In this document: positions 2,194-31,271 of the stretch, piece after piece
Position numbering within the stretch: the first letter of the stretch is position 1
How the letters are laid out: the number at the start of each line of letters is the position of its first letter
Assembly (NCBI RefSeq): GCF_041600255.1
Contig: NZ_JBFIKK010000001.1
Coordinates: forward strand, 564-64,563
Direction: 5' to 3'
Length of the DNA stretch: 64,000 bases
Source: Nocardioides sp.
GTDB taxonomy: Bacteria; Actinomycetota; Actinomycetes; Propionibacteriales; Nocardioidaceae
The notes under the pieces: model-generated
The model's database searches: none
The model's input: the letters and a program-made list of their open reading frames with translations, nothing else
What the model was told of the DNA's origin: nothing
Made by a program: the position numbers and the translations under genes

Positions 2194-2308
2194 GGCCCCA
2201 TGTTCGCACCTTCCACCGGCTGATCCGGTTCACCCACTCCGGACGCTGTGGAGGACGTCCTGTGGACCGCCGTGTGCCTGCGCCGGGTCCGGCCTGCATG
2301 ATGGGCGC

Positions 2309-2944
2309 GTGGTCAGGAACTCGGGAACTCCCACCTCATCGTCGACTCCACCTGCGCTGCGGGTGCGCGCGCCCGGCTGGCGCGACCCCCGCCTATGGGT
2401 CGGCCTGCTCGTCGTCACGCTCTCCGTGGTCCTGGGCGCACGCGTCGTCGGTGCTGCCGACCGGACGATCGAGGTCTGGTCGGTCGCCGGCGACCACGTC
2501 GAGGGCGACGTGCTGGCGCCGGAGGACCTCGTCGTCGCGCGGGTGCACCTCGCCGAGGCGTCCGCGGGCTACCTGCGGGCTCAGGAGCAGCTCCCGGCCG
2601 TGATCAGGCTGACCCGGGCCGTGGCGGACGGCGAGCTGCTGCCGCGGGCGGCCGTGGGGGCCGAGGAGAGCGGCGACGAACGGCTCCGGCTCCCGATCGC
2701 CGTCGACGCTCACCTGGTGCCACCGTCGGTGGCCGCCGGGTCGGTCGTGGACGTCTACCTCGAGTCGGGTCGACCGGCGCTGTCCTCGGTGCCGGTCGTG
2801 GAGTCCCCGGCCCTGGACGCCGGCTTCGCCGCCACCGGGCGCCGACAGCTGGTGCTGGCCGTGGACGAAGGCGCGGCCCATCGCTTCTTCCGCCTCCTGG
2901 GCTCGCTCGACCAGCCCACCCTCACCGTGGTCCGGCGGGGATGA
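2309..2944 (+). CDS. SAF-domain membrane protein (CpaB/RcpC-like)
   Basis: N-terminal TM after WRDPRLWVG, SAF-like VWSVAGDHVEGDVL...LTRAVADGELLP, C-terminal VGSVVDVY motif. CATGAT -10 box just upstream of GTG 2309. Confidence 0.75.
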   Translation: MVRNSGTPTSSSTPPALRVRAPGWRDPRLWVGLLVVTLSVVLGARVVGAADRTIEVWSVAGDHVEGDVLAPEDLVVARVHLAEASAGYLRAQEQLPAVIRLTRAVADGELLPRAAVGAEESGDERLRLPIAVDAHLVPPSVAAGSVVDVYLESGRPALSSVPVVESPALDAGFAATGRRQLVLAVDEGAAHRFFRLLGSLDQPTLTVVRRG

Positions 2945-4236
2945 GCGTGCCCGCACGTCCGGTGGTGGTCCTCGTCGTCGCCAGTGGCGCCGCCTGGGAG
3001 TCCGACGCCCTGGGCCGTCTGAACGAGGAGCGCGGGATCGTGGTGCTCAAGCGGTGCGTGGACGTCGCCGACCTCCTCGCCGCCTCCAGTGCCGGCCAGG
3101 CCGACGTGGCCGTGCTGGGTCTGGAGTCGCCCGGGCTCGACCGCTCCGCCATCGACCTCCTGCGCCGGCACGGCGTCCGGCCCGTGCTGGTGCTGCCGGG
3201 CACGGTCGACGAGGAGCCGGCCCGGTTGCGGGCTGCGAGGATCGGCGTCTCCGCCCTGGTCCCGGCCACCGATCTGACGGGTCTCGTCGCCGCCGTGATC
3301 GGCCCCGGGGACGACCCGGCGTATCCGGCCGGTGCGGAGCCGCCCGCCCGAGCGGACCCGGACCCGTCCGACGCCGCCGGGCCGCGCGGCCGGGTGATCG
3401 CCGTGTGGGGTCCGGCCGGAGCTCCCGGCCGGACCACCGTCGCCGCCGGCCTCGCGGCCCTGCTCGCGGCCCGGGGGAGGGCGACCACGCTGGTCGACGC
3501 CGACCCGTACGGCGGGTCCGTGGCGCAGCAGCTGGGCATCCTGGACGAGGTGTCCGGACTGCTGGCGGCCGCTCGCCTCGCGGGCACCGGCGCGTTCGAC
3601 GAGCACGGGCGCACCCTGCCGCGCCGGATGAACAGCCGGCTGGCCGTGGTGACCGGGCTGCCGCGGGCCGACCGGTGGGTGGAGGTCCGCCCCGGCGTGC
3701 TCGAGGCCCTGCTGGACGATGCCGCCGGCCGCGGGGACGTCCTGGTGGACACCGGCTTCAGCATCGAGGACGAGCCCGGCGCCGAGTTCGGCGCCCGGCC
3801 CGGCCGCAACCACCTGACGCTGACGGCGCTGGCGAGGGCCGAGGAGGTGGTGGTCGTGGGCAGCGCCGATCCGGTCGGGCTCTCCCGACTGGCCCGGGGT
3901 CTCGTCGAGCTCCGCCCGGTCGTCGAGGGCACCCCGGTACGCGTGGTCGTGAACCGGATGCGGCCGTCCCTGGGCTGGTCGGAGAAGGAGATCGCCGGCA
4001 TGGTCACCGGCTTCCTGCGGGTGGCGGACGTGCACTTCCTGCCCGAGGACCGCGCCAGCGTGGATCGCCAACTGCTCGCCGGTCAGACCCTGGCCGAGGC
4101 CGGGGATTCGGCGCTGGGGCGCGCGCTCGACCGGGTGGTCGACGTGGTCGCTCCGGGCTCTCTGCCCTCGCCGGCGGACCGCGCCGCCCGTCGCCCGCTC
4201 AGGCGGCGAACAGCAGGTACAGCCCACCGACGGTGA
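2941..4236 (+). CDS. CpaE/TadZ/Ssd-like MinD-family P-loop protein with degenerate N-terminal receiver domain
   Basis: ATGA overlap with the SAF gene; VIAVWGPAGAPGRTT deviant Walker A; LVDADPYGG; LVDTG; receiver-like N-terminus. Confidence 0.8.
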   Translation: MSVPARPVVVLVVASGAAWESDALGRLNEERGIVVLKRCVDVADLLAASSAGQADVAVLGLESPGLDRSAIDLLRRHGVRPVLVLPGTVDEEPARLRAARIGVSALVPATDLTGLVAAVIGPGDDPAYPAGAEPPARADPDPSDAAGPRGRVIAVWGPAGAPGRTTVAAGLAALLAARGRATTLVDADPYGGSVAQQLGILDEVSGLLAAARLAGTGAFDEHGRTLPRRMNSRLAVVTGLPRADRWVEVRPGVLEALLDDAAGRGDVLVDTGFSIEDEPGAEFGARPGRNHLTLTALARAEEVVVVGSADPVGLSRLARGLVELRPVVEGTPVRVVVNRMRPSLGWSEKEIAGMVTGFLRVADVHFLPEDRASVDRQLLAGQTLAEAGDSALGRALDRVVDVVAPGSLPSPADRAARRPLRRRTAGTAHRR

Positions 4237-5542
4237 AGGCGATCATCGCGACGAGCAGGGAGAGTTGGCCGGTCAGCTGGTGGCGCTTGGGCAGCAGCTG
4301 GATCGCCCGTTCGTGGGCGGCGACCACGCCCACCACGTGTCCGAGCACCACCGCGACCACCTTGAAGTTCGCCAGCAGGGTCGGGTGGTAGGAGAGCCAG
4401 TAGTTGACGCTCCAGTCGCCGGTGCCGAGCAGGTTGCTGCCGTCGCCCAGCGGGTCGCTGGCCTGGATCAGCGTCTGCTGGCCGACCTCGAAGAGGTAGG
4501 TCAGGTAGTGGGCGAAGATGTAGCCCACGACGATCGGCACCACCGAGTGCGCGAAGAGGTCGGGCAGGTCCACCCGCCGGGTCGCCTTGTCCACGCCGGT
4601 CAGCATCGAGCCCAGGGCGAAGACCAGCCCCACGCCGGCGCAGAAGACCAGCAGCGCGAGGTTGTTGGCGACGTCCGCGAGCCAGCCGTGGTCCCGGAAG
4701 GCCGGGGTGTTCTGCAGGAAGCGCACCCAGGCGTTGGAGTCCCGGAACGAGTCGAAGGCGGTGCTCCCGAACAGCACGCTGACCACGGCGAGCAGGCCCG
4801 GCCCCACCTCGACGGTGTCCAGGTTGGCCTGCGGGCTACGGAGCACGAGCATGCCGTCGCGGCGCCCCCAGACCGACATCTTCGCGACCAGGCTCGAGTA
4901 GACCTCGAACGGGTCGCCGCGCTCGTAGAAGCGGCTGCCGAAGAGGGCGCCGCCCAGCAGCATCACCGCGAGGTACACCGCGCACCAGAGCCGGACGGCA
5001 TCCAGCTCGGTCTTGTAGGGGAAGACCAGCTCGAACCACACGAACGCGAAGAGCCCGAGGGCCGCCGGCCAGTAGCCGAGTCGCTCGGGGTAGGTGAACA
5101 CGCCGCGGTCGGGGTCGCTGCCCGACAACCGGGCGAAGAGCAGGTTGATCGTCCGGACCGGGCTGATGGCCTTCCAGACCGGTCCGAGCAGCAGCGAGAG
5201 CGGCACCAGGCCGACCCACCACCAGACGAAGAACATCCCGAAGAACGGGTTGGTGAGCAGGTCCTGGCCGAGCAGGGCCGCGACGGCGGCGTACGCCGTG
5301 ATCGCGAGGCCGAGGGCACGCAGCAGCATTCGGAAGGCCGCCGAGTCGACGATCCGGGTGGTGCCCGGAAGGACGACCCCGCCGGCGGCTCCGGCATACC
5401 GCGGCGAGCGCCAGGCGACCGCCAGCACGATGAACGAGACCGTGAGCGCCGCGACAGCGCCGGCGATGGCCAGCTCGGGGGAGAGCGGGAGGTCCTTGGC
5501 GCCGCCGATGCCGTGGGCCCCGGTCAGCCGGTCGGGCGACAC
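4199..5542 (-). CDS. Conserved polytopic membrane protein (AHGIGG..DLP family), function unknown
   Basis: About 10 hydrophobic helices; N-terminal AHGIGGAKDLPL; His-containing motifs FAHSVVPIVVGYIFAHYL and GHVVGVVAAHER. Confidence 0.8.
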   Translation of the reverse strand: MSPDRLTGAHGIGGAKDLPLSPELAIAGAVAALTVSFIVLAVAWRSPRYAGAAGGVVLPGTTRIVDSAAFRMLLRALGLAITAYAAVAALLGQDLLTNPFFGMFFVWWWVGLVPLSLLLGPVWKAISPVRTINLLFARLSGSDPDRGVFTYPERLGYWPAALGLFAFVWFELVFPYKTELDAVRLWCAVYLAVMLLGGALFGSRFYERGDPFEVYSSLVAKMSVWGRRDGMLVLRSPQANLDTVEVGPGLLAVVSVLFGSTAFDSFRDSNAWVRFLQNTPAFRDHGWLADVANNLALLVFCAGVGLVFALGSMLTGVDKATRRVDLPDLFAHSVVPIVVGYIFAHYLTYLFEVGQQTLIQASDPLGDGSNLLGTGDWSVNYWLSYHPTLLANFKVVAVVLGHVVGVVAAHERAIQLLPKRHQLTGQLSLLVAMIAFTVGGLYLLFAA

Positions 5543-5543
5543 G

Positions 5544-5906
5544 TCAGCGGACTTCGAGCTGGACGATCGTCCTGGCCGGCGAGTGCGACTCGATGTCGAC
5601 GACGCCAGGGGTCTGGATGGTCAGCTTCAGCGTGGTCGTGCCCGCGCCGTACTCCAGCTGCTGCTCCGGGCTGGAGTGCACGTGCAGCTCGCCCGCGGTG
5701 TCGGACTTCACCACCAGCTCGATCGGCGTGCCGGCCTCGATCTGGACCCGCTCGCCGTTGGGGGTCACGGAGCCGTCGGAGAAGGTGATCTCGATCGTCT
5801 GACGCTCGGGAGGGGCGCTGTCCGATGGTCCTGGGGACTCGCTGCACCCGGTGCTCAGGATGAGGGGGAGGGCGATGATCGCCGCTGCTGCCAGCAGTCG
5901 CCGCAT
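5544..5906 (-). CDS. Lipoprotein with cupredoxin-like fold
   Basis: Signal peptide with lipobox LSTG-C; GELHVH and DIESH motifs; directly upstream of the membrane protein gene (1-bp gap). Confidence 0.75.
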   Translation of the reverse strand: MRRLLAAAAIIALPLILSTGCSESPGPSDSAPPERQTIEITFSDGSVTPNGERVQIEAGTPIELVVKSDTAGELHVHSSPEQQLEYGAGTTTLKLTIQTPGVVDIESHSPARTIVQLEVR

Positions 5907-6035
5907 GTCGGGGGTTCCTGTCGATCGCTCGTGAGGGTGGGCAGGCGCCCGGGTGGACCGGCGCCTCTGCCAGAATCCCATGTGACACAACCTCTCGGGC
6001 CGCCACCCCGGCCGCACGCGACGAAAGGGCTCCGG

Positions 6036-7511
6036 ATGACCGACCGGCTCCGACCGCGGGACCTGGCCTTCCTCGCCGCGGAGTCTCCCTCGACGCCTGC
6101 GCACAACGCCACGGTCGAGATCTTCGACCCCGGCGACTCGGGGTTCGACTACCGGCGTTTCCTCGACCTCGTGCAGGACCGCATCTCCTTCGCGCCCCGC
6201 TACCGCCAGCGGCTGCAGGCCGTGCCCGGGCGCCTCGCGAACCCGGTCTGGGTCGACGACGTCGACTTCGACCTGAGCTACCACGTACGCCGCTCCGCCC
6301 TGCCGCGACCCGGGTCGCTCGACCAGCTGCGCGAGCTGGTCGGCCGGATCGTGTCGCGCCCGCTGGACCGCAACCACCCGCTGTGGGAGATGTACTTCGT
6401 GGAGGGGCTGGCCGACGGCCGGGTCGCCCTGCTCTCCAAGTCCCACCAGGCCCTCGTCGACGGCGTGCACACCGTCGACCTCGGCCAGGTGCTGCTCGAC
6501 GTCACGCAGACCCCGAAGGAGCTCGGCGGCGACCAGTGGCGTCCGCGCAGCCCGGTCAGCCCCCTGCAACTGCTCACCGGCGCGGTGCGGGACTCGGTGA
6601 CGAGCTCCACCACGACGCTCGACACCGTGCGCAGCAACGCCGAGGCGGTCCTGCGGACGGTGGAGTCCGCCAGCCACCGCACCAACCGGGTCGTCAGCGC
6701 CCTCACCGGCAGGGACCCCGAGCGTGAGTCGCCGATCAGCGGCACGCTGTCCCAGCAGCGCCGGATCGTCGTGCTCCGCACCGACCTGGCCGACTACCGC
6801 ACGGTCCGCGACGCCCACGGCGGCACCGTCAACGACGTCATCCTCGCCGCCGTCACCGGAGCGTTGCGGGGCTGGCTGATGACCCGCACCGAGTCCCTCG
6901 GCGGCCTGCGCCAGCTGCGCGCGGTGGTGCCGGTCTCGGTGGTCGACAAGGAGCTCGAGGCGACCTCGCTGGGCAGCCAGATCGCTGCCCACTTCGTCGA
7001 CCTGCCGATCGGCGAGGCCAGCCCGGTGGTCCGCCTGCACCAGGTGTCCTACTCGTTCCAGGTGCACAAGGAGACCGGTCGCGGCGTGGCGGCCAATCGG
7101 CTGGCGGGGATCGCCGGGTTCGCGCCCACGACGTTCCACGCCATCGGCGCCCGGGTGGCCGCCGACGAGGCCCGCCGGCGCGGCTTCCAGCTCAGCGTCA
7201 CCAACGTGCCCGGCCCGCAGTCGCCGCTGTACGCCGCCGGCGCCCGGATGACCGAGACCTACCCGGTCCCGCCGCTGCTGCCCGGGCACGCCCTGGCGAT
7301 CGGCGTCACGTCGTACGACGGTGGCGTGTTCTACGGCATCACCGCCGACCGGGACCTGCTGCCCGACGCCGACCTGCTCGGGCCCTGCCTGCGCGAGGCG
7401 TTGGACGAGCTGCTCGACACGGCGACCGGCGCCCGACCGAAGGTTCCGCGCGGTCGCAAGCGGGTCCCGGCCAAGCCGCGCGCGACGGCGCGCAGGACGG
7501 TGACGGACTGA
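6036..7511 (+). CDS. Wax ester synthase/diacylglycerol acyltransferase (WS/DGAT, Tgs3-like)
   Basis: DLAFLAAE, RPLDRNHPLWEMYFVEGL, KSHQALVDG, TVNDVILA, VTNVPGPQ. Confidence 0.95.
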   Translation: MTDRLRPRDLAFLAAESPSTPAHNATVEIFDPGDSGFDYRRFLDLVQDRISFAPRYRQRLQAVPGRLANPVWVDDVDFDLSYHVRRSALPRPGSLDQLRELVGRIVSRPLDRNHPLWEMYFVEGLADGRVALLSKSHQALVDGVHTVDLGQVLLDVTQTPKELGGDQWRPRSPVSPLQLLTGAVRDSVTSSTTTLDTVRSNAEAVLRTVESASHRTNRVVSALTGRDPERESPISGTLSQQRRIVVLRTDLADYRTVRDAHGGTVNDVILAAVTGALRGWLMTRTESLGGLRQLRAVVPVSVVDKELEATSLGSQIAAHFVDLPIGEASPVVRLHQVSYSFQVHKETGRGVAANRLAGIAGFAPTTFHAIGARVAADEARRRGFQLSVTNVPGPQSPLYAAGARMTETYPVPPLLPGHALAIGVTSYDGGVFYGITADRDLLPDADLLGPCLREALDELLDTATGARPKVPRGRKRVPAKPRATARRTVTD

Positions 7512-13046: not shown

Positions 13047-16000
13047 GTGTCAACGACGACGCTCGATCAGGACAAAGCTGACCTCATTGCGAAGGCGATC
13101 GACCTGGCCCTGGCCGGCCGAGGTTCCGGTGGCCCGCCCCACGACACCGTGGGCGCCCTCATCAGGGCCTACTACCGCCATGTCGCGCCCGAGGACGTGT
13201 GCGACCGCGGCGAGGCCGACGTGTACGGCGCGGTCGCGTCGCACTGGAGGCTCGCCGAGAACCGCCCCCAGGGGCGGGCGATGGTCCGGGTGTTCACCCC
13301 GAGCCTGGGTGAGAACGGCTGGTCGGCCGTCGGTCACTCGGTGGTCGAGGTCGTCACCGACGACATGCCCTTCCTGGTCGACTCGCTGACCATGGAGCTG
13401 TCGCGCCAGATGCGCGACGTGCACGCGGTGATCCACCCGCACTTCGACGTAACCCGCGACATCACCGGCGCCCTGCAGAGCGTGACGCCGATCTCCGACG
13501 GTTCGCTGGAGCCCGAGGGCGACGCCATCCGGGAGTCGTGGATGCACGTCGAGATCGACCGGATCCGCGACACCGACGACGTGACCGAGATCGAGCAGGC
13601 CGTGCAGCGCGTCCTGCGCGACGTCCGGGAGGCGGTCGAGGACTGGGAGAAGATGCACGCCCAGGTCCGCGAGATCGTCGAGGAGCTCGAGACCGACCCG
13701 CCGGACCTGGACCCGGACGAGATCCGTCAGGGCCGCGAGCTGTTGACCTGGCTCGCCGACGACCACTTCACCTTCCTCGGCTACCGCGAGTACCGCCTCG
13801 AGCGGGACGGCGACGACGAGCTGCTGCGTGCCCTGCCGGGCACCGGTTTCGGGATCCTGCGGGCCGACCAGGACATGTCGTCCTCGTTCGGCAAGCTGCC
13901 CGCGGTCGTCAAGGCCAAGGCGCGGGAGAAGACCCTGCTGGTCCTCGCGAAGGCGAACTCGCGGGCCACCGTGCACCGCCCCGCCTACCTGGACTACGTG
14001 GGGGTCAAGAAGTTCGAGAACGGCGAGGTGGTGGGGGAGCGTCGCTTCCTGGGCCTCTTCTCGAGTGCCGCGTACACCGAGTCGCTGACCCGGATCCCGC
14101 TGCTGCGGGAGAAGGCCGCCGAGGTGCTCAAGCGCACCGGTTTCGACCCCCGCAGCCACGCCGGCAAGGCGCTGATGGACACGCTCGAGACCTACCCGCG
14201 TGACGAGATGTTCCACACCCCGGTCGACGAGCTCGCCCCGATGGCCGAGGCGGCCATGCACGCTCGGGCGCGCCGCCAGGTCCGGATGTTCATCCGCCGC
14301 GACACCTACGGCCGCTATGTCTCGGTGCTCGTCTACCTGCCCCGGGACCGGTACAACACCACCGTCCGGGAGCGCTTCTCCGAGATCCTCAAGGAGCGGC
14401 TCGGCGGCGAGAACGTCGAGTTCACCGTGCGCGTCAACGAGTCGACCACGGCCCGGGTGCACTTCGTGGTGCACCCGCCCAAGGGCACCCCGATCGCGGA
14501 GGTCGACTCCGCGGACCTCGAGCGGCGCCTGACCGAGGCCTCCCGCTCGTGGCGCGACGACTTCGTGACCGCCGTGATGGCCGAGTACGGCGAGGAGTCC
14601 GGTGCCGTGCTCGGGCGCCGGTACGTCGACTCGCTGCCGGAGGCGTACAAGGAGGACTTCTCCGCCCGGACCGGTGCGATCGACCTGGGTCGGCTGGAGG
14701 CGATCGAGGGGGACGAGGGCATCGACCTCTCGCTCTACGAACAGCTGGACGCCGGTCGGGGTGAGGCCCGCCTCAAGGTCTTCCGGGTCGGCCCTCCGCT
14801 GTCGCTCTCGGAGATCCTGCCGATGCTCTCCTCGATGGGGGTCGAGGTCGTCGACGAGCGGCCCTACGAGCTCGAGGGGCTGGGTCGACCGACGTACATC
14901 TACGAGTTCGGCCTGCGCTACGGCAAGGCCCTGCCGATGCGCTCGCGCGAGCTGTTCCAGGACGCGCTGCGTGCGGTCCGCGACGGCTTCAACGAGACCG
15001 ACGGCTTCAACGCGCTGATCCTGGGCGCCGGGATCACCTGGCGTCAGGCCACGGTCCTGCGCGCCTATGCCAAGTACATGCGCCAGGGGAACTCGCCCTT
15101 CGCCCTCGACTACATCGAGGAGGCGTTGGCCAACAACGTCGACATCACCGGCCTGCTGGTGAAGCTCTTCGAGGCCAGGTTCGACCCGGGCAGCAACGGC
15201 CTCGCGGCCGACGCCGAGGCGCGCACGGCGCGCGTGGAGCAGGTCGAGGAGCGGCTCGCCCGCGCCCTCGACGCGGTGGAGAGCCTGGACCACGACCGGA
15301 TCCTGCGGGCCTACCTGACGCACATCCGGGCGACCCTGCGCACGAACTACTTCCAGCCCGACACCGACGGCTCCACCAAGACCTACATGTCGTTCAAGCT
15401 CGACACGTCGGCCATCCCCGACCTGCCCGAGCCGCGGCCGCAGTTCGAGATCTTCGTCTACTCGCCCCGCGTCGAGGGCGTGCACCTGCGCTTCGGCGCG
15501 GTCGCCCGGGGAGGCCTGCGCTGGTCGGACCGACGCGACGACTTCCGCACCGAGGTGCTCGGTCTGGTCAAGGCACAGATGGTCAAGAACACCGTGATCG
15601 TGCCGGTGGGTGCCAAGGGCGGGTTCTTCTGCAAGCAGCTCCCCGACCCCTCCGACCGTGACGCATGGCTCGCCGAGGGCGTGGCCTGCTACACGACGTT
15701 CATCTCCGGGCTGCTCGACATCACCGACAACCTCGTCGACGGCGAGACGGTGCCGCCCTCGGCGGTGGTGCGCCACGACGGGGACGACTCCTACCTGGTG
15801 GTCGCGGCCGACAAGGGCACCGCGACCTTCTCCGACACCGCCAACGCGATCGCCCAGAAGTACGGCTTCTGGCTGGGCGACGCCTTCGCCAGCGGTGGTT
15901 CGGTGGGCTACGACCACAAGGCGATGGGGATCACCGCCCGCGGCGCGTGGGTCTCGGTGCAGCGTCACTTCCGCGAGCGCGGCATCGACTGCCAGCACGA

Positions 16001-27130: not shown

Positions 27131-27928
27131 ATGACTGACCTTCCGGCGGGCCGCCCCGTGGAGACCTGGCTGACCGACATGGACGGTGTCCTCGTGCACG
27201 AGGACGTCCCGATCCCCGGCGCGAAGGAGTTCATCGAGGCGCTCAAGGCGTCCGGCCTCGGCTTCCTGGTGCTGACCAACAACTCCATCTTCACCCCGCG
27301 CGACCTGCGGGCCCGACTGCTCAGCAGCGGGATCGACGTACCCGAGGAGGCGATCTGGACCTCGGCGCTGGCGACCGCGCAGTTCCTGGTCGAGCAGCGC
27401 CCGCGCGGCACGGCGTACGTCGTGGGCGAGTCGGGGCTGACCACGGCGCTGCACGACATCGGCTACGTGATGACCGACCGCGACCCGGACTACGTGGTGC
27501 TGGGGGAGACCCGGACCTACTCGTTCGAGGCGATCACGACCGCGATCCGACTGGTGGAGAAGGGGGCGCGCTTCCTGGCCACCAACCCCGACGTCAGCGG
27601 CCCGAGCGTGCACGGCACGCTGCCGGCGACCGGGTCGGTGGCGGCGCTGATCGAGACCGCGACCGGTCGCAAGCCGTACTTCATCGGCAAGCCGAACCCG
27701 TTGATGATGCGCAGTGCCCTGAACCGCCTCGACGCGCACTCCGAGACCACCGTGATGGTGGGCGACCGGATGGACACCGACATCAAGAGCGGGCTGGAGG
27801 CGGGCCTGCGGACGGTGCTGGTGATGGGCGGCTCGACGCGGGAGGACCAGATCGAGATGTTCCCCTACCGGCCGACGATGGTGGTCGACTCGGTGGCGGA
27901 CCTGGTCGACACCGTCGGCAGGGACTGA
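27131..27928 (+). CDS. HAD-IIA hydrolase (NagD-like)
   Basis: DMDGVL, LTNNS, ATNPD, GKPNP, GDRMDTDI. Confidence 0.95.
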   Translation: MTDLPAGRPVETWLTDMDGVLVHEDVPIPGAKEFIEALKASGLGFLVLTNNSIFTPRDLRARLLSSGIDVPEEAIWTSALATAQFLVEQRPRGTAYVVGESGLTTALHDIGYVMTDRDPDYVVLGETRTYSFEAITTAIRLVEKGARFLATNPDVSGPSVHGTLPATGSVAALIETATGRKPYFIGKPNPLMMRSALNRLDAHSETTVMVGDRMDTDIKSGLEAGLRTVLVMGGSTREDQIEMFPYRPTMVVDSVADLVDTVGRD

Positions 27929-27979
27929 ACCCCGCTCGAGCACGCGCCCGAGGCTCCTTGAATCTTCACCGACCAGGGG

Positions 27980-28007
27980 TCAAGGTCGGCTCCTGGGCCA
28001 CCGATGT
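27980..28007 (+). promoter_or_regulatory. Putative sigma28 (FliA/WhiG)-type promoter TCAAG-N15-ACCGATGT
   Basis: Both boxes and the 15-nt spacing recur exactly at 28249; resembles the TAAA(G)-N15-GCCGATAA class. Confidence 0.55.
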
Positions 28008-28063
28008 GTCCGGTGGAGGGAGGCAGTCGATGCCTCCGGCGGAACAGGTTCTGGGAGGTCCTG

Positions 28064-28219
28064 ATGACGCAGGCACAGTTGCTCGACATGCTCGATCTGG
28101 TCGCGATGAGTCTCTGCTCCTCGTGTGGCGAGGCCGTCGGCCAGTTCCGTGGAGATCCGTCGCTGTGGGTGCACCTGCCCAGCGACGACGGCTCCTGGCT
28201 CGGGCCGATCCGGGACTGA
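28064..28219 (+). CDS. 51-aa CxxC...WxH microprotein, copy 1
   Basis: MTQAQLLDMLDLVAMSLCSSCGEAVGQFRGDPSLWVHLPSDDGSWLGPIRD; GGGAGG RBS; paralogous to 28338-28511. Confidence 0.75.
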   Translation: MTQAQLLDMLDLVAMSLCSSCGEAVGQFRGDPSLWVHLPSDDGSWLGPIRD

Positions 28220-28248
28220 TCGCCGTGACCACCTTTTTACTTTCAGAT

Positions 28249-28276
28249 TCAAGGTCTTCGGGCTGGGGACCGATGA
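28249..28276 (+). promoter_or_regulatory. Putative sigma28 (FliA/WhiG)-type promoter TCAAG-N15-ACCGATGA
   Basis: Second copy, identical boxes and spacing, 62 nt upstream of microprotein 2. Confidence 0.55.
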
Positions 28277-28337
28277 ACAGGGTGAGCGGGGAGCACACCA
28301 GCACCCCACCGGGAGCCATGTCCGTAGGGGAGTCCTG

Positions 28338-28511
28338 ATGACTCAGGAGAAGCTTGTCGAACTGCTTGATCTGACCCAGGTCAGCGTCTGCGCCGTCTGC
28401 GGCCAGGCGGTCGCCCAGTCCAAGCGTGACGAGACCGTGTGGCTGCACATCCCGAACGGCGGCTGCGAGTGGCTGTTCCCGCCGCACCGGGGTGTGCGCG
28501 AGCGTCACTGA
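28338..28511 (+). CDS. 57-aa CxxC...WxH microprotein, copy 2
   Basis: MTQEKLVELLDLTQVSVCAVCGQAVAQSKRDETVWLHIPNGGCEWLFPPHRGVRERH; GGGGAG RBS; 21 of 48 aligned residues identical to copy 1 without gaps. Confidence 0.75.
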   Translation: MTQEKLVELLDLTQVSVCAVCGQAVAQSKRDETVWLHIPNGGCEWLFPPHRGVRERH

Positions 28512-28518
28512 CGCCCCC

Positions 28519-28569
28519 GCGACGTGACAGCGACGTCCTCGCGACGCGCTGACGACGGCCCCTCGACAG
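28519..28569 (+). promoter_or_regulatory. Five heptamer direct repeats at 11-bp period (putative SARP operator)
   Basis: GCGACGT-N4-GCGACGT-N4-GCGACGC-N4-ACGACGG-N4-TCGACAG; CGAC cores at 28520, 28531, 28542, 28553, 28564. Confidence 0.7.
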
Positions 28570-28634
28570 TCGTCCTGCTTTCTTCGGAGTGACCGTGCGC
28601 ATGGGATGCGCGGCGCAACGAAGGGAGCATCGAC

Positions 28635-29795
28635 ATGTCCGATCCAGGCTCGAAGGGTGACTTCGCCACTCCGTCGGGCGACGCCGCGCAGTCCGACGAA
28701 ACGGCCGGCACCGCGTTCTCGACGCCGCCCGACTCGTCCAGCGCCGCCGAGCAGGCGGCCTTCACGCTCGACGCCCAGTCGATGGGCGGGGTGAGCACCC
28801 AGCTCCTCGACACGCACGCCGCCCTCGAGGACGCCCTGCACCGTCAGGAACGCTCGACGAAGGGCGCCCACAGCATCGAGTCGCTCAGCGACCTCGGCGG
28901 CATGGCCAACGTCCAAGGTGTGGCCATCGGGCTCGGTTCGCCCGGCGACGGCCCTCCCGGCGAGCCGACGCTGAACGTCTACGTCGCCGAGCGGACCTCG
29001 GTCGAGCGGGTGCGCGAGGTGGTGGTCGACGGCCTCGGCGTCCAGTCCGCGGGCGACATCAAGATGACGGTCCGGCGCTCCGGCCAGTTCGACGCCCAGC
29101 CGCACCGGTTCCGGATCCGACCGGCTCCCGGCGGAGTCTCTGTCGGGCACGTCAAGGTGACCGCGGGGACGCTCGGCTGCCTCAGCATCGGACGCAGCTC
29201 GCCGCGCAACTCGCGACTGTTGATGCTGTCCAACAACCACGTCCTGGCGAACTCCAACAACGCCGTGTACGGCGACAGCATCATCCAGCCCGGTCGCTAC
29301 GACGGTGGTTCGCACCCCGGCGACCAGGTGGCGATCCTGGAGCGATTCGTGCCCATCCAGTTCGGCGGCGGCACCAACTACGTGGACGCCGCCACCGGGT
29401 GGTGCTGGCCCGACCGGGTACGCCGCGAGCTGATCTACCCCTACGGCAGCGGGTTCGCGTTGTACCGGATCGGCAGTAACCCGGTCTACCCGCAGCTCGG
29501 CTGGCTGGTCGGGAAGTCGGGTCGGACCACCCAGCTGACCCAGGGCCGCATCGTGTCGGTGAACTGGTCCGGTTGGGTCAACTACGGGGTCGGGTACGGC
29601 TGGTTCGTCGGCCAGATGGTCGTGCAGGGCGGCAGCGGCGACTTCTCGGCAGGCGGTGACTCGGGTTCGGTGATCTGGAAGTGGGAGTCCGGGCTGCCTC
29701 CCACGGGCTTGCTCTTTGCCGGCGGTGGTGGCTACACGATCGCCAGCCCGATGCCGTGGGTGACCTATCTGCTCGACATCAACCTCTACACCTGA
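28635..29795 (+). CDS. Cytoplasmic trypsin-fold (S1, NAL1-like) serine protease with N-terminal regulatory domain
   Basis: GGVSVGH..TAGTLGC, LSNNHVL (His), YVDAA (Asp), GGDSGS (Ser), GKSGRTT, GLLFAG; no signal peptide; AAGGGAG RBS. Confidence 0.88.
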   Translation: MSDPGSKGDFATPSGDAAQSDETAGTAFSTPPDSSSAAEQAAFTLDAQSMGGVSTQLLDTHAALEDALHRQERSTKGAHSIESLSDLGGMANVQGVAIGLGSPGDGPPGEPTLNVYVAERTSVERVREVVVDGLGVQSAGDIKMTVRRSGQFDAQPHRFRIRPAPGGVSVGHVKVTAGTLGCLSIGRSSPRNSRLLMLSNNHVLANSNNAVYGDSIIQPGRYDGGSHPGDQVAILERFVPIQFGGGTNYVDAATGWCWPDRVRRELIYPYGSGFALYRIGSNPVYPQLGWLVGKSGRTTQLTQGRIVSVNWSGWVNYGVGYGWFVGQMVVQGGSGDFSAGGDSGSVIWKWESGLPPTGLLFAGGGGYTIASPMPWVTYLLDINLYT

Positions 29796-29904
29796 GGCGG
29801 TGCGCACCGTGCTCGTCCGGGCGGCAACCCAGGCTTGGTCCGCCCGGTCGGCGCTAGCATCGAACCGGGCTTGCTTGTCCACGGCCGCAGGGAGGTGATG
29901 GTCC

Positions 29905-30237
29905 GTGACGGACTTCGAGGATCCGCTCCAGGGTGGCGAGGACGCTGCCCTTCCGCACCGCCCACCGCCGTCTGGTGCCGCGTCCGCCGAGGATGAGCTC
30001 CTCGAGCGTCACCGGGCGGACCTGCTCACCGTGCCCGGCGTGACGGCCGTATGGTCCGGGCTGACCTCGACGGGGGCGGTTGCCGTCTTCGTCGGCGTCA
30101 CGGATCCGTCGGCACGCGACCGGCTGCCCCGCTCGCTGGAGGGCCTGCCGGTGGAGGTGGTCGACGTGCCCGGCGGGTTCGTCGCCCTGGCCGACGGTGA
30201 CCGGCCCGCCGAGCCACCCCCGTCGGAGTGTCAATAG
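29905..30237 (+). CDS. Small protein resembling a stand-alone NAL1-type protease N-terminal domain
   Basis: LLTVPGVTAVWSG...AVFVGV...LPRSLEGLPVEVVDVPGGFVAL; GGGAGG RBS. Confidence 0.7.
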   Translation: MTDFEDPLQGGEDAALPHRPPPSGAASAEDELLERHRADLLTVPGVTAVWSGLTSTGAVAVFVGVTDPSARDRLPRSLEGLPVEVVDVPGGFVALADGDRPAEPPPSECQ

Positions 30238-30349
30238 CGTGGATGCGCCATGGACGGAGGCGCCCCCGTTCGTCAGGATGAGGTGCAGCGCCGTCCAATG
30301 CTCGTGACTCGGATGCGGGCCGGAGGCGGCGCGGACGGGGGCAGTCCCG

Positions 30350-31168
30350 ATGGTCTCGCCCGGGGGCGCAGACACGTCGATCTCCGTGCTCGGCGGGTTC
30401 GACGTGCTCTCAAGGGGAGAGCGGCTGAACCTACCGGAGGCCGTGCAGCGCATGCTGGGCTTCCTGGCCGTGACCGGGAAGCGGCAGTGCCGCAGCACGG
30501 TGGCGGGCCGGTTGTGGCCGCTCATCGGTGAGGCGCGCGCGCAGGGCAACCTGCGCACCGCGCTCTGGCAGCTCCGGCGGACCGATCTCGACGTGGTCCG
30601 CGCCGTCCGGGACCAGCTCTGGCTCAGCGAGGACGTGGCGCTGGACTTCCGCGCGATGACCGAGCAGGCCTGGGGCGTGCTGAGTGGGGACCTCAGCGCG
30701 ACCGACGTTCTCGGCCTCTCGCTGCCGCTGTTCCAGGCGGATCTGCTGCCGGACTGGGACGAGGACTGGCTGCTGATCGAACGCGAACGACACCGCCAGC
30801 TGCGCCTGCACGCGCTGGAGGCCGTCAGCCACCGCCTGGTTGAGCTCGGACGACACGCCCTGGCAGCCGAGGCGGCGTACGCCGCGATCACGGTCGAGCC
30901 GCTGTGCGAGTCGGCCCACCGGACGCTGGCGCAGGTGTTCCTGGCCGAGGGCAATCCGACCGAGGCGCTGCGGCAGTTCGAGCTCTACCGCGCACTGTTG
31001 GACGACGAGACCGGGTACGGCCCGACCGACGCGTTCGTCGCGTTGATCACTGCGCCCAGGCGGCCCCGCGGGACCGAGGTCAGGCTGATGAGCTCCGGCC
31101 GCTGGCGGCCGCGGGACGCCGGCGGGCCGACCGGGGGTCGCCAGGTGACGAAGCCCGGCGGGCCGTGA
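30350..31168 (+). CDS. Small SARP/AfsR-family activator (wHTH + BTAD)
   Basis: ISVLGGF, AGRLWP...GNLRTALWQLRR, DLLPDWDEDWLLIERER, EPLCESAHRTL, GNPTEALRQF. Confidence 0.92.
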   Translation: MVSPGGADTSISVLGGFDVLSRGERLNLPEAVQRMLGFLAVTGKRQCRSTVAGRLWPLIGEARAQGNLRTALWQLRRTDLDVVRAVRDQLWLSEDVALDFRAMTEQAWGVLSGDLSATDVLGLSLPLFQADLLPDWDEDWLLIERERHRQLRLHALEAVSHRLVELGRHALAAEAAYAAITVEPLCESAHRTLAQVFLAEGNPTEALRQFELYRALLDDETGYGPTDAFVALITAPRRPRGTEVRLMSSGRWRPRDAGGPTGGRQVTKPGGP

Positions 31169-31271
31169 GCGCGCGGCGGCCGTTCTCCACAGATTGAACC
31201 CCGCCCTTGTCGGGTAGGGCCATGCCAGCACTACGGTGCTGACAGGAACCTCACTCGGGACAGGGACCGTC

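Follow-up and report, generated by a model that had tools for sequence, protein, structure and literature searches.

What five co-oriented open reading frames (ORFs) in a Nocardioides genome amount to, one regulated-proteolysis circuit or a smaller module standing beside unrelated genes, is the question raised by the locus described here. The window, which is the whole stretch of DNA analysed, comprises 64,000 nt of Nocardioides sp. (NZ_JBFIKK010000001.1, positions 564–64,563), and all coordinates given below are window positions. The five ORFs lie between a HAD-IIA/NagD-like gene that ends at 27928 and tadA, which starts at 31236. They encode two microproteins (mp1 and mp2), a trypsin-fold serine protease, a small protein referred to here as the partner, and a transcriptional activator of the SARP type. 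A first-pass annotation of this DNA had joined all five into a single circuit spanning 27958–31168. The five genes are present as it described, with slightly corrected coordinates: the end of the span stands, whereas its start derives from a spurious long ORF at 27958, and mp1 in fact starts at 28064. Our analysis favours a smaller system. We put the probability at roughly 55%, as a joint figure for the whole explanation, that a mobile cassette of three genes occupies a hypervariable slot beside tad pilus genes, and that within it the SARP induces an intracellular protease related to plant NAL1 that is regulated in trans by a pro-domain-like paralogue of its own N-terminal region.

The protease gene (28635–29795, forward strand; GC content at third codon positions, GC3, 0.91) encodes a 386-aa NAL1-like serine protease of the S1 class. 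The catalytic triad noted in the first-pass annotation is complete: H202, D251, and S343 are invariant in an alignment of 16 sequences, and in a deeper alignment of 81 sequences H202 and S343 are invariant and D251 is conserved in at least 90%. In the AF2 model of the protein (pLDDT 84.9, pTM 0.86), a disordered acidic tail (residues 1–54) bearing F-x-x-P...E-x-A-A motifs and a helix (55–70) are followed by a small alpha/beta N-domain (approximately 90–150) and then by a catalytic domain with the double beta-barrel chymotrypsin fold. The flexible junction SGQFDAQ/PHRF occupies residues 151–161, of which 151–155 are modelled at low confidence. In a Foldseek search of the Protein Data Bank (PDB), the best 34 matches to this model were all rice NAL1 (E = 4e-17 to 1e-11, approximately 390 aligned columns, TM-score 0.54–0.61), and secreted proteases of the alpha-lytic/SGPB type came next (E ~1e-11).

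At the sequence level, the same relationship leaves fainter traces. A sequence search of the PDB with the protease returned nothing relevant. The window protease scores 16.7 bits with the Pfam profile Nal1_C (PF25819), which is below the cut-off of 26.1; 14 of 16 relatives match this profile weakly (E down to 8e-6), and PF25819 is precomputed for approximately one-quarter of the homologues listed. Weak matches to Peptidase_S64, all below the Pfam threshold, were obtained for 15 of 16 family members (best E = 2e-4), and the window protease itself fails this profile (E = 0.91, 8.3 bits versus a cut-off of 23.6). In NCBIfam, no match was found for the protease, the partner, mp1, or mp2. The designation of the protease as NAL1-like is supported by the predicted fold and architecture, at a sequence identity of only 16–18%.

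The partner gene (29905–30237, forward strand), which is preceded by a GGGAGG ribosome-binding site 9 nt before its start, encodes 110 aa, and its product is a free paralogue of the N-terminal tail and N-domain of the protease. The first-pass annotation had noticed a resemblance between the two proteins, and this proved to reflect homology that is resolved only with deep alignments. BLASTP of the partner against the protease gave no match, and hhalign with shallow profiles of 5 and 16 sequences aligned the right region without significance. Alignment of 59 partners with 81 protease N-regions, in contrast, gave a probability of 96–97% (E = 2e-9 in local and 3e-10 in global mode), and the global alignment also pairs the tail motif F-x-x-P...E-x-A-A between partner and protease. 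The core of the partner in its AF2 model (pLDDT ~84) has the same helix-hairpin-helix-strand order as residues 55–148 of the protease. Its best meaningful Foldseek matches are structures of the alpha-lytic protease pro region (2pro, 3pro, and 4pro; probability 0.97–1.0, E ~0.01, rmsd ~3 Å over 62 residues). Most partners stop at, or within a few residues of, the motif TGxIDA[LQY] or GGFxA[LQ], which aligns with the protease junction SGxFDAQ/PHRF. The window partner carries the end motif GGFVAL, followed by a 15-aa extension.

The two genes travel together. We examined 93 protease loci from genomes and metagenomes and counted co-occurrence wherever at least 700 nt of downstream sequence was available (n = 70). 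In 63 of these 70 loci, a partner homologue of approximately 100 aa follows the protease gene within 1.2 kb and on the same strand; the median protease–partner gap is 197 nt. Among the seven exceptions, L085 has the partner on the opposite strand, and L019 and L035 carry a transposase-like ORF just past the protease (3041–4330 and 2214–3377, respectively; a call made from sequence alone). These ORFs stand where the partner is expected and would explain its absence there. L064 has several adjacent matches to the protease profile (3690–4853, 5005–5901, and 5986–7059, within 3690–7059) and a single partner gene after the last one; these look like tandem paralogues. Free partners were also found beside distant protease homologues on plasmids: in Rubrobacter the partner has 77 aa and its gene lies downstream (E = 1e-15), and in Bacillus cereus it has 76 aa and its gene lies upstream (E = 2e-9). 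The partner hidden Markov model (HMM) additionally matches the N-domain of the Bacillus protease itself (E = 7e-6). All-versus-all clustering of neighbouring ORFs revealed no third universally conserved gene and only lineage synteny, such as catalase in one clade. Judged by this gene distribution, the protease and partner form a two-gene core with an exchangeable regulator, and not a five-gene system.

The protease family as a whole has more than 6369 homologues, distributed patchily across phyla in Actinomycetota, Chloroflexota, and others. Several of its members deserve mention in their own right. The closest genomic homologue, from an Acidimicrobiia metagenome-assembled genome (L001 7890–8251; 79% identity), has an apparent frameshift in the N-terminal tail: the family-typical start MSSSGSENQFETP is out of frame with the rest of the gene, which points to an assembly error or a pseudogene. 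An archaeal virus, Alphaspiravirus yamagawaense, whose host is Aeropyrum pernix (HE681887.1, NC_043427.1), encodes a putative serine protease that is 44% identical around the catalytic His (residues 160–255). The distant pairs on the B. cereus plasmid (L102) and on plasmid 2 of Rubrobacter radiotolerans (L103) both adjoin a sulP sulfate permease gene, the Bacillus pair also a carbonic anhydrase gene, which may be a coincidence or a transferred block.

The third gene of the cassette (30350–31168, forward strand) encodes a 272-aa small activator with an OmpR-type DNA-binding domain and a BTAD domain. Its earlier assignment as a SARP is borne out by a Pfam BTAD match of 58 bits (cut-off 22.1; E = 1.9e-15) and by a profile of five orthologues that aligns with residues 44–280 of AfsR (PDB 8hvr; E = 1.3e-13), the DNA-binding domain included. 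A profile was needed for this alignment, as a PDB search with the single sequence returned nothing relevant; in NCBIfam, one spurious sub-threshold TPR match was obtained. Public annotation (P0132) starts the gene later, which gives a protein of 238 aa and leaves off window positions 30350–30451. The 272-aa form is probably the right one, because the short start removes G15, G16, and F17, which are invariant and lie in the conserved first strand of the DNA-binding domain.

Just past the mp2 stop and 62–127 nt upstream of the protease ATG lies an array of direct repeats with an 11-bp period (28508–28573, forward strand; up to six copies with the core nCGACG), which is presumed to be the SARP site and the promoter of the protease operon. 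Three copies of GCGACG followed by ACGACG occur at exact 11-bp spacing (28519–28557), and weaker copies on both sides extend the array to its full length. The array reported in the first-pass annotation is thereby confirmed: the pattern has one match in the window, the array is unique in 64 kb, and the pattern occurs in none of 100 shuffles. TRF does not call the array because just six of the 11 bases are conserved per unit. In published SARP sites, the direct repeats follow one another at a spacing of 11 or 22 bp (PMC10936776).

The association of regulator and repeats is also found elsewhere. A SARP of the same subfamily adjoins the protease–partner pair in seven independent loci (the window, L001, L018/L020, L022, L028/L029, L095 from Agromyces, and L098), where it lies upstream, downstream, or in divergent orientation. 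Apart from L022, whose sequence breaks off upstream, six of these loci have readable DNA ahead of the protease operon, and all six carry 11-bp-periodic repeats there. The repeat cores are of the CGACG type in the window and L018, less regular in L001, and three copies of TTGAC in L028/L029, and L098 has three copies. The longest array, in Agromyces binzhouensis (L095 3814–3936), consists of 11.2 copies of the 11-bp unit CGCCGCGGTAG between the SARP and protease genes and far exceeds typical SARP boxes in length. No extra component common to the SARP-linked loci was found; S8 peptidases beside L018 and L098, of each of which only fragments are available, showed no cross-match.

The extent of the cassette was defined by blastn comparison with three syntenic relatives (L093, L094, and L100). 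In the window, where the host genome has a GC content of approximately 70%, the five-gene stretch is preceded by a two-component pair and the HAD-IIA/NagD-like hydrolase. Identities between the relatives and the window are 84% for the response regulator, 77% for the kinase, 92% for the HAD protein, and 89% for TadA. Homology runs through 28219, continues from 28242 to 28504, stops within 28504–28515, where the repeat array begins, and restarts at 31183, 15 nt past the SARP stop. Because a single block of approximately 2.67 kb (28512–31182) is specific to the window, the array, protease, partner, and SARP behave as a unit. The comparison with close relatives proposed in the first-pass annotation shows that all three lack the protease, partner, and SARP, and other genes fill the slot: a DUF4157/eCIS_core gene in L094 and two unrelated small ORFs in L100. 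Viewed as a whole, the interval between the HAD gene and tadA (27929–31235) is a hypervariable slot: mp1 and mp2 are common to the four related genomes, but the other genes there form four different sets. These comprise the SARP cassette; SNase, GNAT, and a 468-aa ORF plus DUF4157/eCIS_core; further eCIS_core/YkuD genes; and small ORFs of no assigned family.

A hypervariable slot in which relatives carry a DUF4157/eCIS_core protein is also a setting in which a toxin–antitoxin-like or anti-phage module might be expected. The protease would then be a latent toxic effector and the partner its stoichiometric inhibitor, whose loss or displacement releases proteolysis. The pro-region-like fold of the partner suggests tight inhibition, the distant pairs are borne on plasmids and the family is patchy across phyla, and other loci are flanked by PIN/Phd toxin–antitoxin genes, a KAP NTPase, or STAND/AAA_16 proteins. 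These neighbourhood associations are, however, anecdotal, and in a clade of approximately 12 loci the synteny around the pair is stable and the neighbouring genes, catalase for example, are of a housekeeping type. The first-pass annotation had advised a check for known defence systems, and in PADLOC-DB v2 none of the five proteins had a match at E ≤ 0.1. The viral contig collection yielded only three weak protease matches (33–39% identity, none full length), and dedicated activators with long repeat arrays are atypical of defence systems. We regard this role as rather unlikely.

How a SARP-induced protease with a free N-region paralogue might work can be outlined as follows. The small SARP would bind the 11-bp array upstream of the protease gene and activate a protease–partner operon. 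The protease would be an intracellular S1 enzyme of the NAL1 type, built of an acidic tail, an N-domain resembling a pro-domain, and a catalytic domain whose His-Asp-Ser triad is intact. The co-transcribed partner, a paralogue of that tail and N-domain which stops at the equivalent of the junction between N-domain and catalytic domain, may dock on the catalytic domain in trans in the manner of the alpha-lytic pro region, placing its C-terminal GxFxA[LQ] strand within the substrate cleft or close to it. Docking could control the folding, oligomer assembly, or activity of a self-compartmentalising protease resembling NAL1, so that the partner would be an inhibitor, a foldase, or an assembly subunit. 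Because NAL1 (PMC12012508) and Ssy5 (PMC6761765) cleave regulatory proteins, site-specific cleavage of a regulatory protein, and with it a signalling role, is favoured by analogy over bulk degradation.

In this explanation, the gene content, homologies, folds, protease–partner co-occurrence, cassette boundaries, and repeat arrays are observed, whereas we infer the binding and activation by the SARP, the binding of the partner and its effect (inhibition or assembly), the cytoplasmic location, and the substrate. Several observations weigh against it. By E-value (~0.01), the partner matches the pro region only weakly, and it was modelled from only three sequences because the word-indexed homologue search gave no more proteins than these. 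Partners of the subclade to which the window belongs run 10–15 aa past the junction-like motif; this extension is absent in most family members, and because of it the partner in this subclade is no simple mimic of a cleaved product. Binding of partner to protease is itself a proposal, and the absence of export signals is the sole basis for the cytoplasmic location. Given the gaps between protease and partner and between partner and SARP (109 and 112 nt), the operon structure is tentative. In SARP-dependent promoters, the 3' repeat is expected at a distance of 8 bp to the -10 element; no clear -10 hexamer was found 8 bp past the last repeat of the window array, and a promoter scan found nothing. 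The repeat motifs vary among loci. Finally, most protease–partner loci have no SARP, which is present in three of the 34 loci with full flanks on both sides.

This scarcity bears on the regulator rather than on the pair. Iterated SARP profiles detected no further SARPs in the metagenome loci. Other loci have a different regulator, such as an OmpR-type regulator directly upstream in Thermomicrobiales, a LuxR-type regulator approximately 1.1 kb upstream in Cellulomonas, and in Nonomuraea an upstream DeoR gene that possibly belongs to a neighbouring operon, and some protease loci have no adjacent regulator. Because few protease loci have a SARP and the others have a different adjacent regulator or none, the SARP is, on the distribution seen so far, an accessory regulator of one subclade. 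Within the window locus, a promoter and terminator scan found nothing, and an RNA element is not indicated: Rfam gave zero matches, and the two intergenic gaps folded with z-scores of 0.11 and -0.66.

In 81 proteases and 60 partners, neither a hydrophobic N-terminus nor a transmembrane segment, Tat motif, or Sec signal was found, as the first-pass description of a signal-less trypsin-fold protease had stated for the window protein. Because such export signals are absent, the protease is predicted to be cytoplasmic. The same finding argues against a secreted protease of the alpha-lytic type with a split pro region, in which the partner and N-domain would serve as foldases for an extracellular lytic or nutritional enzyme, perhaps exported by a non-classical route. 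Such an enzyme would fit the position of secreted alpha-lytic/SGPB proteases as the closest structural relatives of the catalytic domain after NAL1, as well as the likeness of the partner to the alpha-lytic pro region; the N-terminal tail motif common to both proteins could be a recognition signal. The cassette also adjoins tad/Flp secretion and pilus genes in two unrelated actinobacteria, lying before tadA (31236 onward) in the window and after tadE/tadG-like genes in Agromyces (L095 1–2709). This adjacency may merely reflect the variable flanks of tad islands, because close relatives have the tad locus without the cassette. The best structural relative, moreover, is the cytosolic/nuclear NAL1, over its full length. 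Secretion therefore seems to us unlikely.

SARPs classically activate biosynthetic clusters (PMC10936776), and the SARP might accordingly be the pathway-specific activator of a peptide-maturation module, in which the protease would process the partner or another precursor into a signalling or bioactive peptide. The C-terminal extension of the partners in the window subclade, past the junction-like motif, could be the part that is cleaved off. However, this extension is missing from most family members, the partner is a folded domain homologous to the N-domain of the enzyme and not a leader–core peptide, and the pair has no conserved association with modifying enzymes or exporters. A neighbourhood of this kind was seen once, on plasmid p4 of Rhizobium ruizarguesonis (L101 1312–4861), where a distant protease homologue (330 aa, N-domain plus catalytic domain) directly follows radical SAM and HEXXH putative peptide-modification proteins; it suggests a peptide-maturation role in that branch. 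For the family represented in the window, we consider such a role decidedly unlikely.

The two microproteins lie upstream of the cassette, on the forward strand, and are flanking, lineage-specific genes outside it. The first, mp1 (28064–28219), has 51 aa and the second, mp2 (28338–28511), 57 aa, and they are paralogues (44% identity, E = 1e-17) with a CxxC...WxH signature in which C18, C21, W35, and H37 are invariant. Of the earlier description of two paralogous zinc microproteins with a promoter motif each, the paralogy and the motif stand, and zinc binding is a prediction for which three possible ligands are conserved. The motif, TCAAGGT-N14-CCGATG, occurs on the forward strand at 27980–28007 and 28249–28276 with the same spacing in both copies, approximately 57–62 nt before each start codon, and is kept in the L094 orthologues. 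It may be a promoter for an alternative sigma factor or an operator. Both genes also have an identical ribosome-binding site and start context. The AT-richer stretch that had been pointed out at 28230–28250 is real and corresponds to the spacer between mp1 and mp2 (GC content 0.63 versus approximately 0.70 around it).

The mp1 orthologue in L093 and L094 is 90% identical, with 11 synonymous versus five non-synonymous codon differences and a GC3 of 0.85, and the mp2 orthologue in the cassette-less relatives (P0121) is 88% identical, with 13 versus eight such differences and a GC3 of 0.84. By this measure, mp1 and mp2 are real, lineage-specific genes under purifying selection. Relatives are few: two in a search of 5.8 billion proteins, and five matches when 1.84 billion cluster representatives were scanned in full with HMMER. 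One of the five, a repetitive 371-aa protein, is probably spurious. Two homologues, P0121 and P0126, were traced to the long contigs syntenic with the window (L093, L094, and L100). In L093, an unrelated N-terminus is joined to a third, partial mp2 copy that comprises 45 residues from the C-terminal end (P0122; 14137–14349), and a 45-nt tadA-homologous fragment (14115–14159) lies just upstream of it. This arrangement has the look of a scar left by rearrangement and suggests a recombination junction at the 3' end of mp2.

These data decide the place of the microproteins in the original five-gene proposal, which cast them as sensors, substrates, or SARP ligands of the protease module. Their adjacency and common orientation in the window, together with their standing as selected genes with a conserved upstream motif, speak for that proposal. 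However, L093, L094, and L100 retain both microproteins without the protease, partner, and SARP, and in L094 a 3-kb block of unrelated genes (SNase, GNAT, and the 468-aa ORF) separates mp1 from mp2. No microprotein homologue was found in approximately 95 other protease loci, and the five matches to the microprotein family contrast with the thousands of protease homologues. Because relatives keep both genes without the cassette and other protease loci lack homologues, mp1 and mp2 are, on comparative grounds, not components of the protease module, and the five-gene circuit is highly improbable. What survives of it is the regulated-proteolysis module itself, in which SARP, 11-bp repeats, protease, and free N-region occur together; the five-gene composition does not. 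The co-occurrence across genomes that would be expected of such a circuit holds for protease and partner, seldom extends to the SARP, and is seen nowhere else for the microproteins.

The pair is a widespread and apparently undescribed arrangement, a putatively pro-domain-regulated S1 protease whose pro-domain-like module has been duplicated as a separate gene. The first-pass annotation knew of no described system of its kind, and neither the protease–partner pair nor the SARP-linked cassette was found in the literature searched or in defence and annotation libraries. A broader view, which we offer only tentatively, is that the pair represents a bacterial regulated-proteolysis switch found in Actinomycetota and Chloroflexota and on plasmids of Bacillota. 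In it, a free paralogue of the pro-domain-like N-region would gate a NAL1-type intracellular protease in trans, and interchangeable regulators (SARP, OmpR-type, or LuxR-type) would control the pair. The switch might then correspond in prokaryotes to plant NAL1 and fungal Ssy5, and possibly be their ancestor, acting as a signalling protease that cleaves a regulator or as a latent suicide effector.

The interest of the system lies in several directions. NAL1 is agronomically important, and control by its N-terminal domain is still being worked out; a large bacterial family with the N-region as a separate, co-transcribed protein would offer a simple genetic and biochemical system for that control. 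For NAL1-type and Ssy5-type proteases, the family also provides a concrete candidate as a source in prokaryotes. A SARP, a regulator usually tied to antibiotic gene clusters, is here apparently dedicated to a protease operon, and the unusually long 11-bp arrays suit studies of SARP–DNA recognition. The hypervariable slot and the plasmid-borne relatives leave a possible role in conflict or defence.

Comparison with known systems places the protease between several of them. The domains described for rice NAL1 are, in order, N-terminal, small ATP-binding, and serine protease, and they assemble into a hexameric cage (PMC12012508). The bacterial protease resembles NAL1 (PDB 7y77, 8hau, and 8pmg) in being a signal-less trypsin-fold protease with a His-Asp-Ser triad and in the order of tail, small alpha/beta domain, and catalytic domain, and the Foldseek alignment includes the N-region. 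It differs in its low sequence identity, its score below the Nal1_C threshold, and its bacterial host, and NAL1 has neither a separate N-domain gene nor SARP control. ATP binding and the trimer/hexamer cage are known for NAL1, to which the bacterial protease is likened by fold and architecture.

With alpha-lytic protease and SGPB (S1E), the protease has the catalytic fold in common, and the predicted fold of the partner tentatively matches one domain of the Pro region. The Pro region of alpha-lytic protease is a foldase and inhibitor that lays its C-terminal strand in the active site. The C-terminus of the partner corresponds to a pro/mature-type junction, which fits a Pro-like foldase or inhibitor. 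In contrast, alpha-lytic protease carries a signal peptide for secretion and a fused Pro region that is then cleaved off, whereas here one pro-like domain is fused, with its cleavage unproven, a second is encoded by a separate gene, and no export signal is present.

Yeast Ssy5 (MEROPS S64) is an intracellular chymotrypsin-fold protease kept inactive by a non-covalently bound prodomain (PMC6761765). The bacterial protease is likewise a predicted intracellular enzyme of the chymotrypsin fold, and its family shows the weak Peptidase_S64 matches; the prodomain of Ssy5, unlike the partner, belongs to the polypeptide of the protease itself, and the proteasome removes it. We know of no free paralogous domain for Ssy5.

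The regulator, finally, resembles the small SARPs (the SARP domain of AfsR, ActII-ORF4, and RedD) in combining an OmpR-type DNA-binding domain with BTAD and in the target-like 11-bp direct repeats beside it. It differs from them in that its presumed target is a protease operon and not a biosynthetic gene cluster, in that its host lineage is not Streptomyces, and in the length of its arrays, which reach six copies here and 11 in Agromyces compared with the usual two to three.

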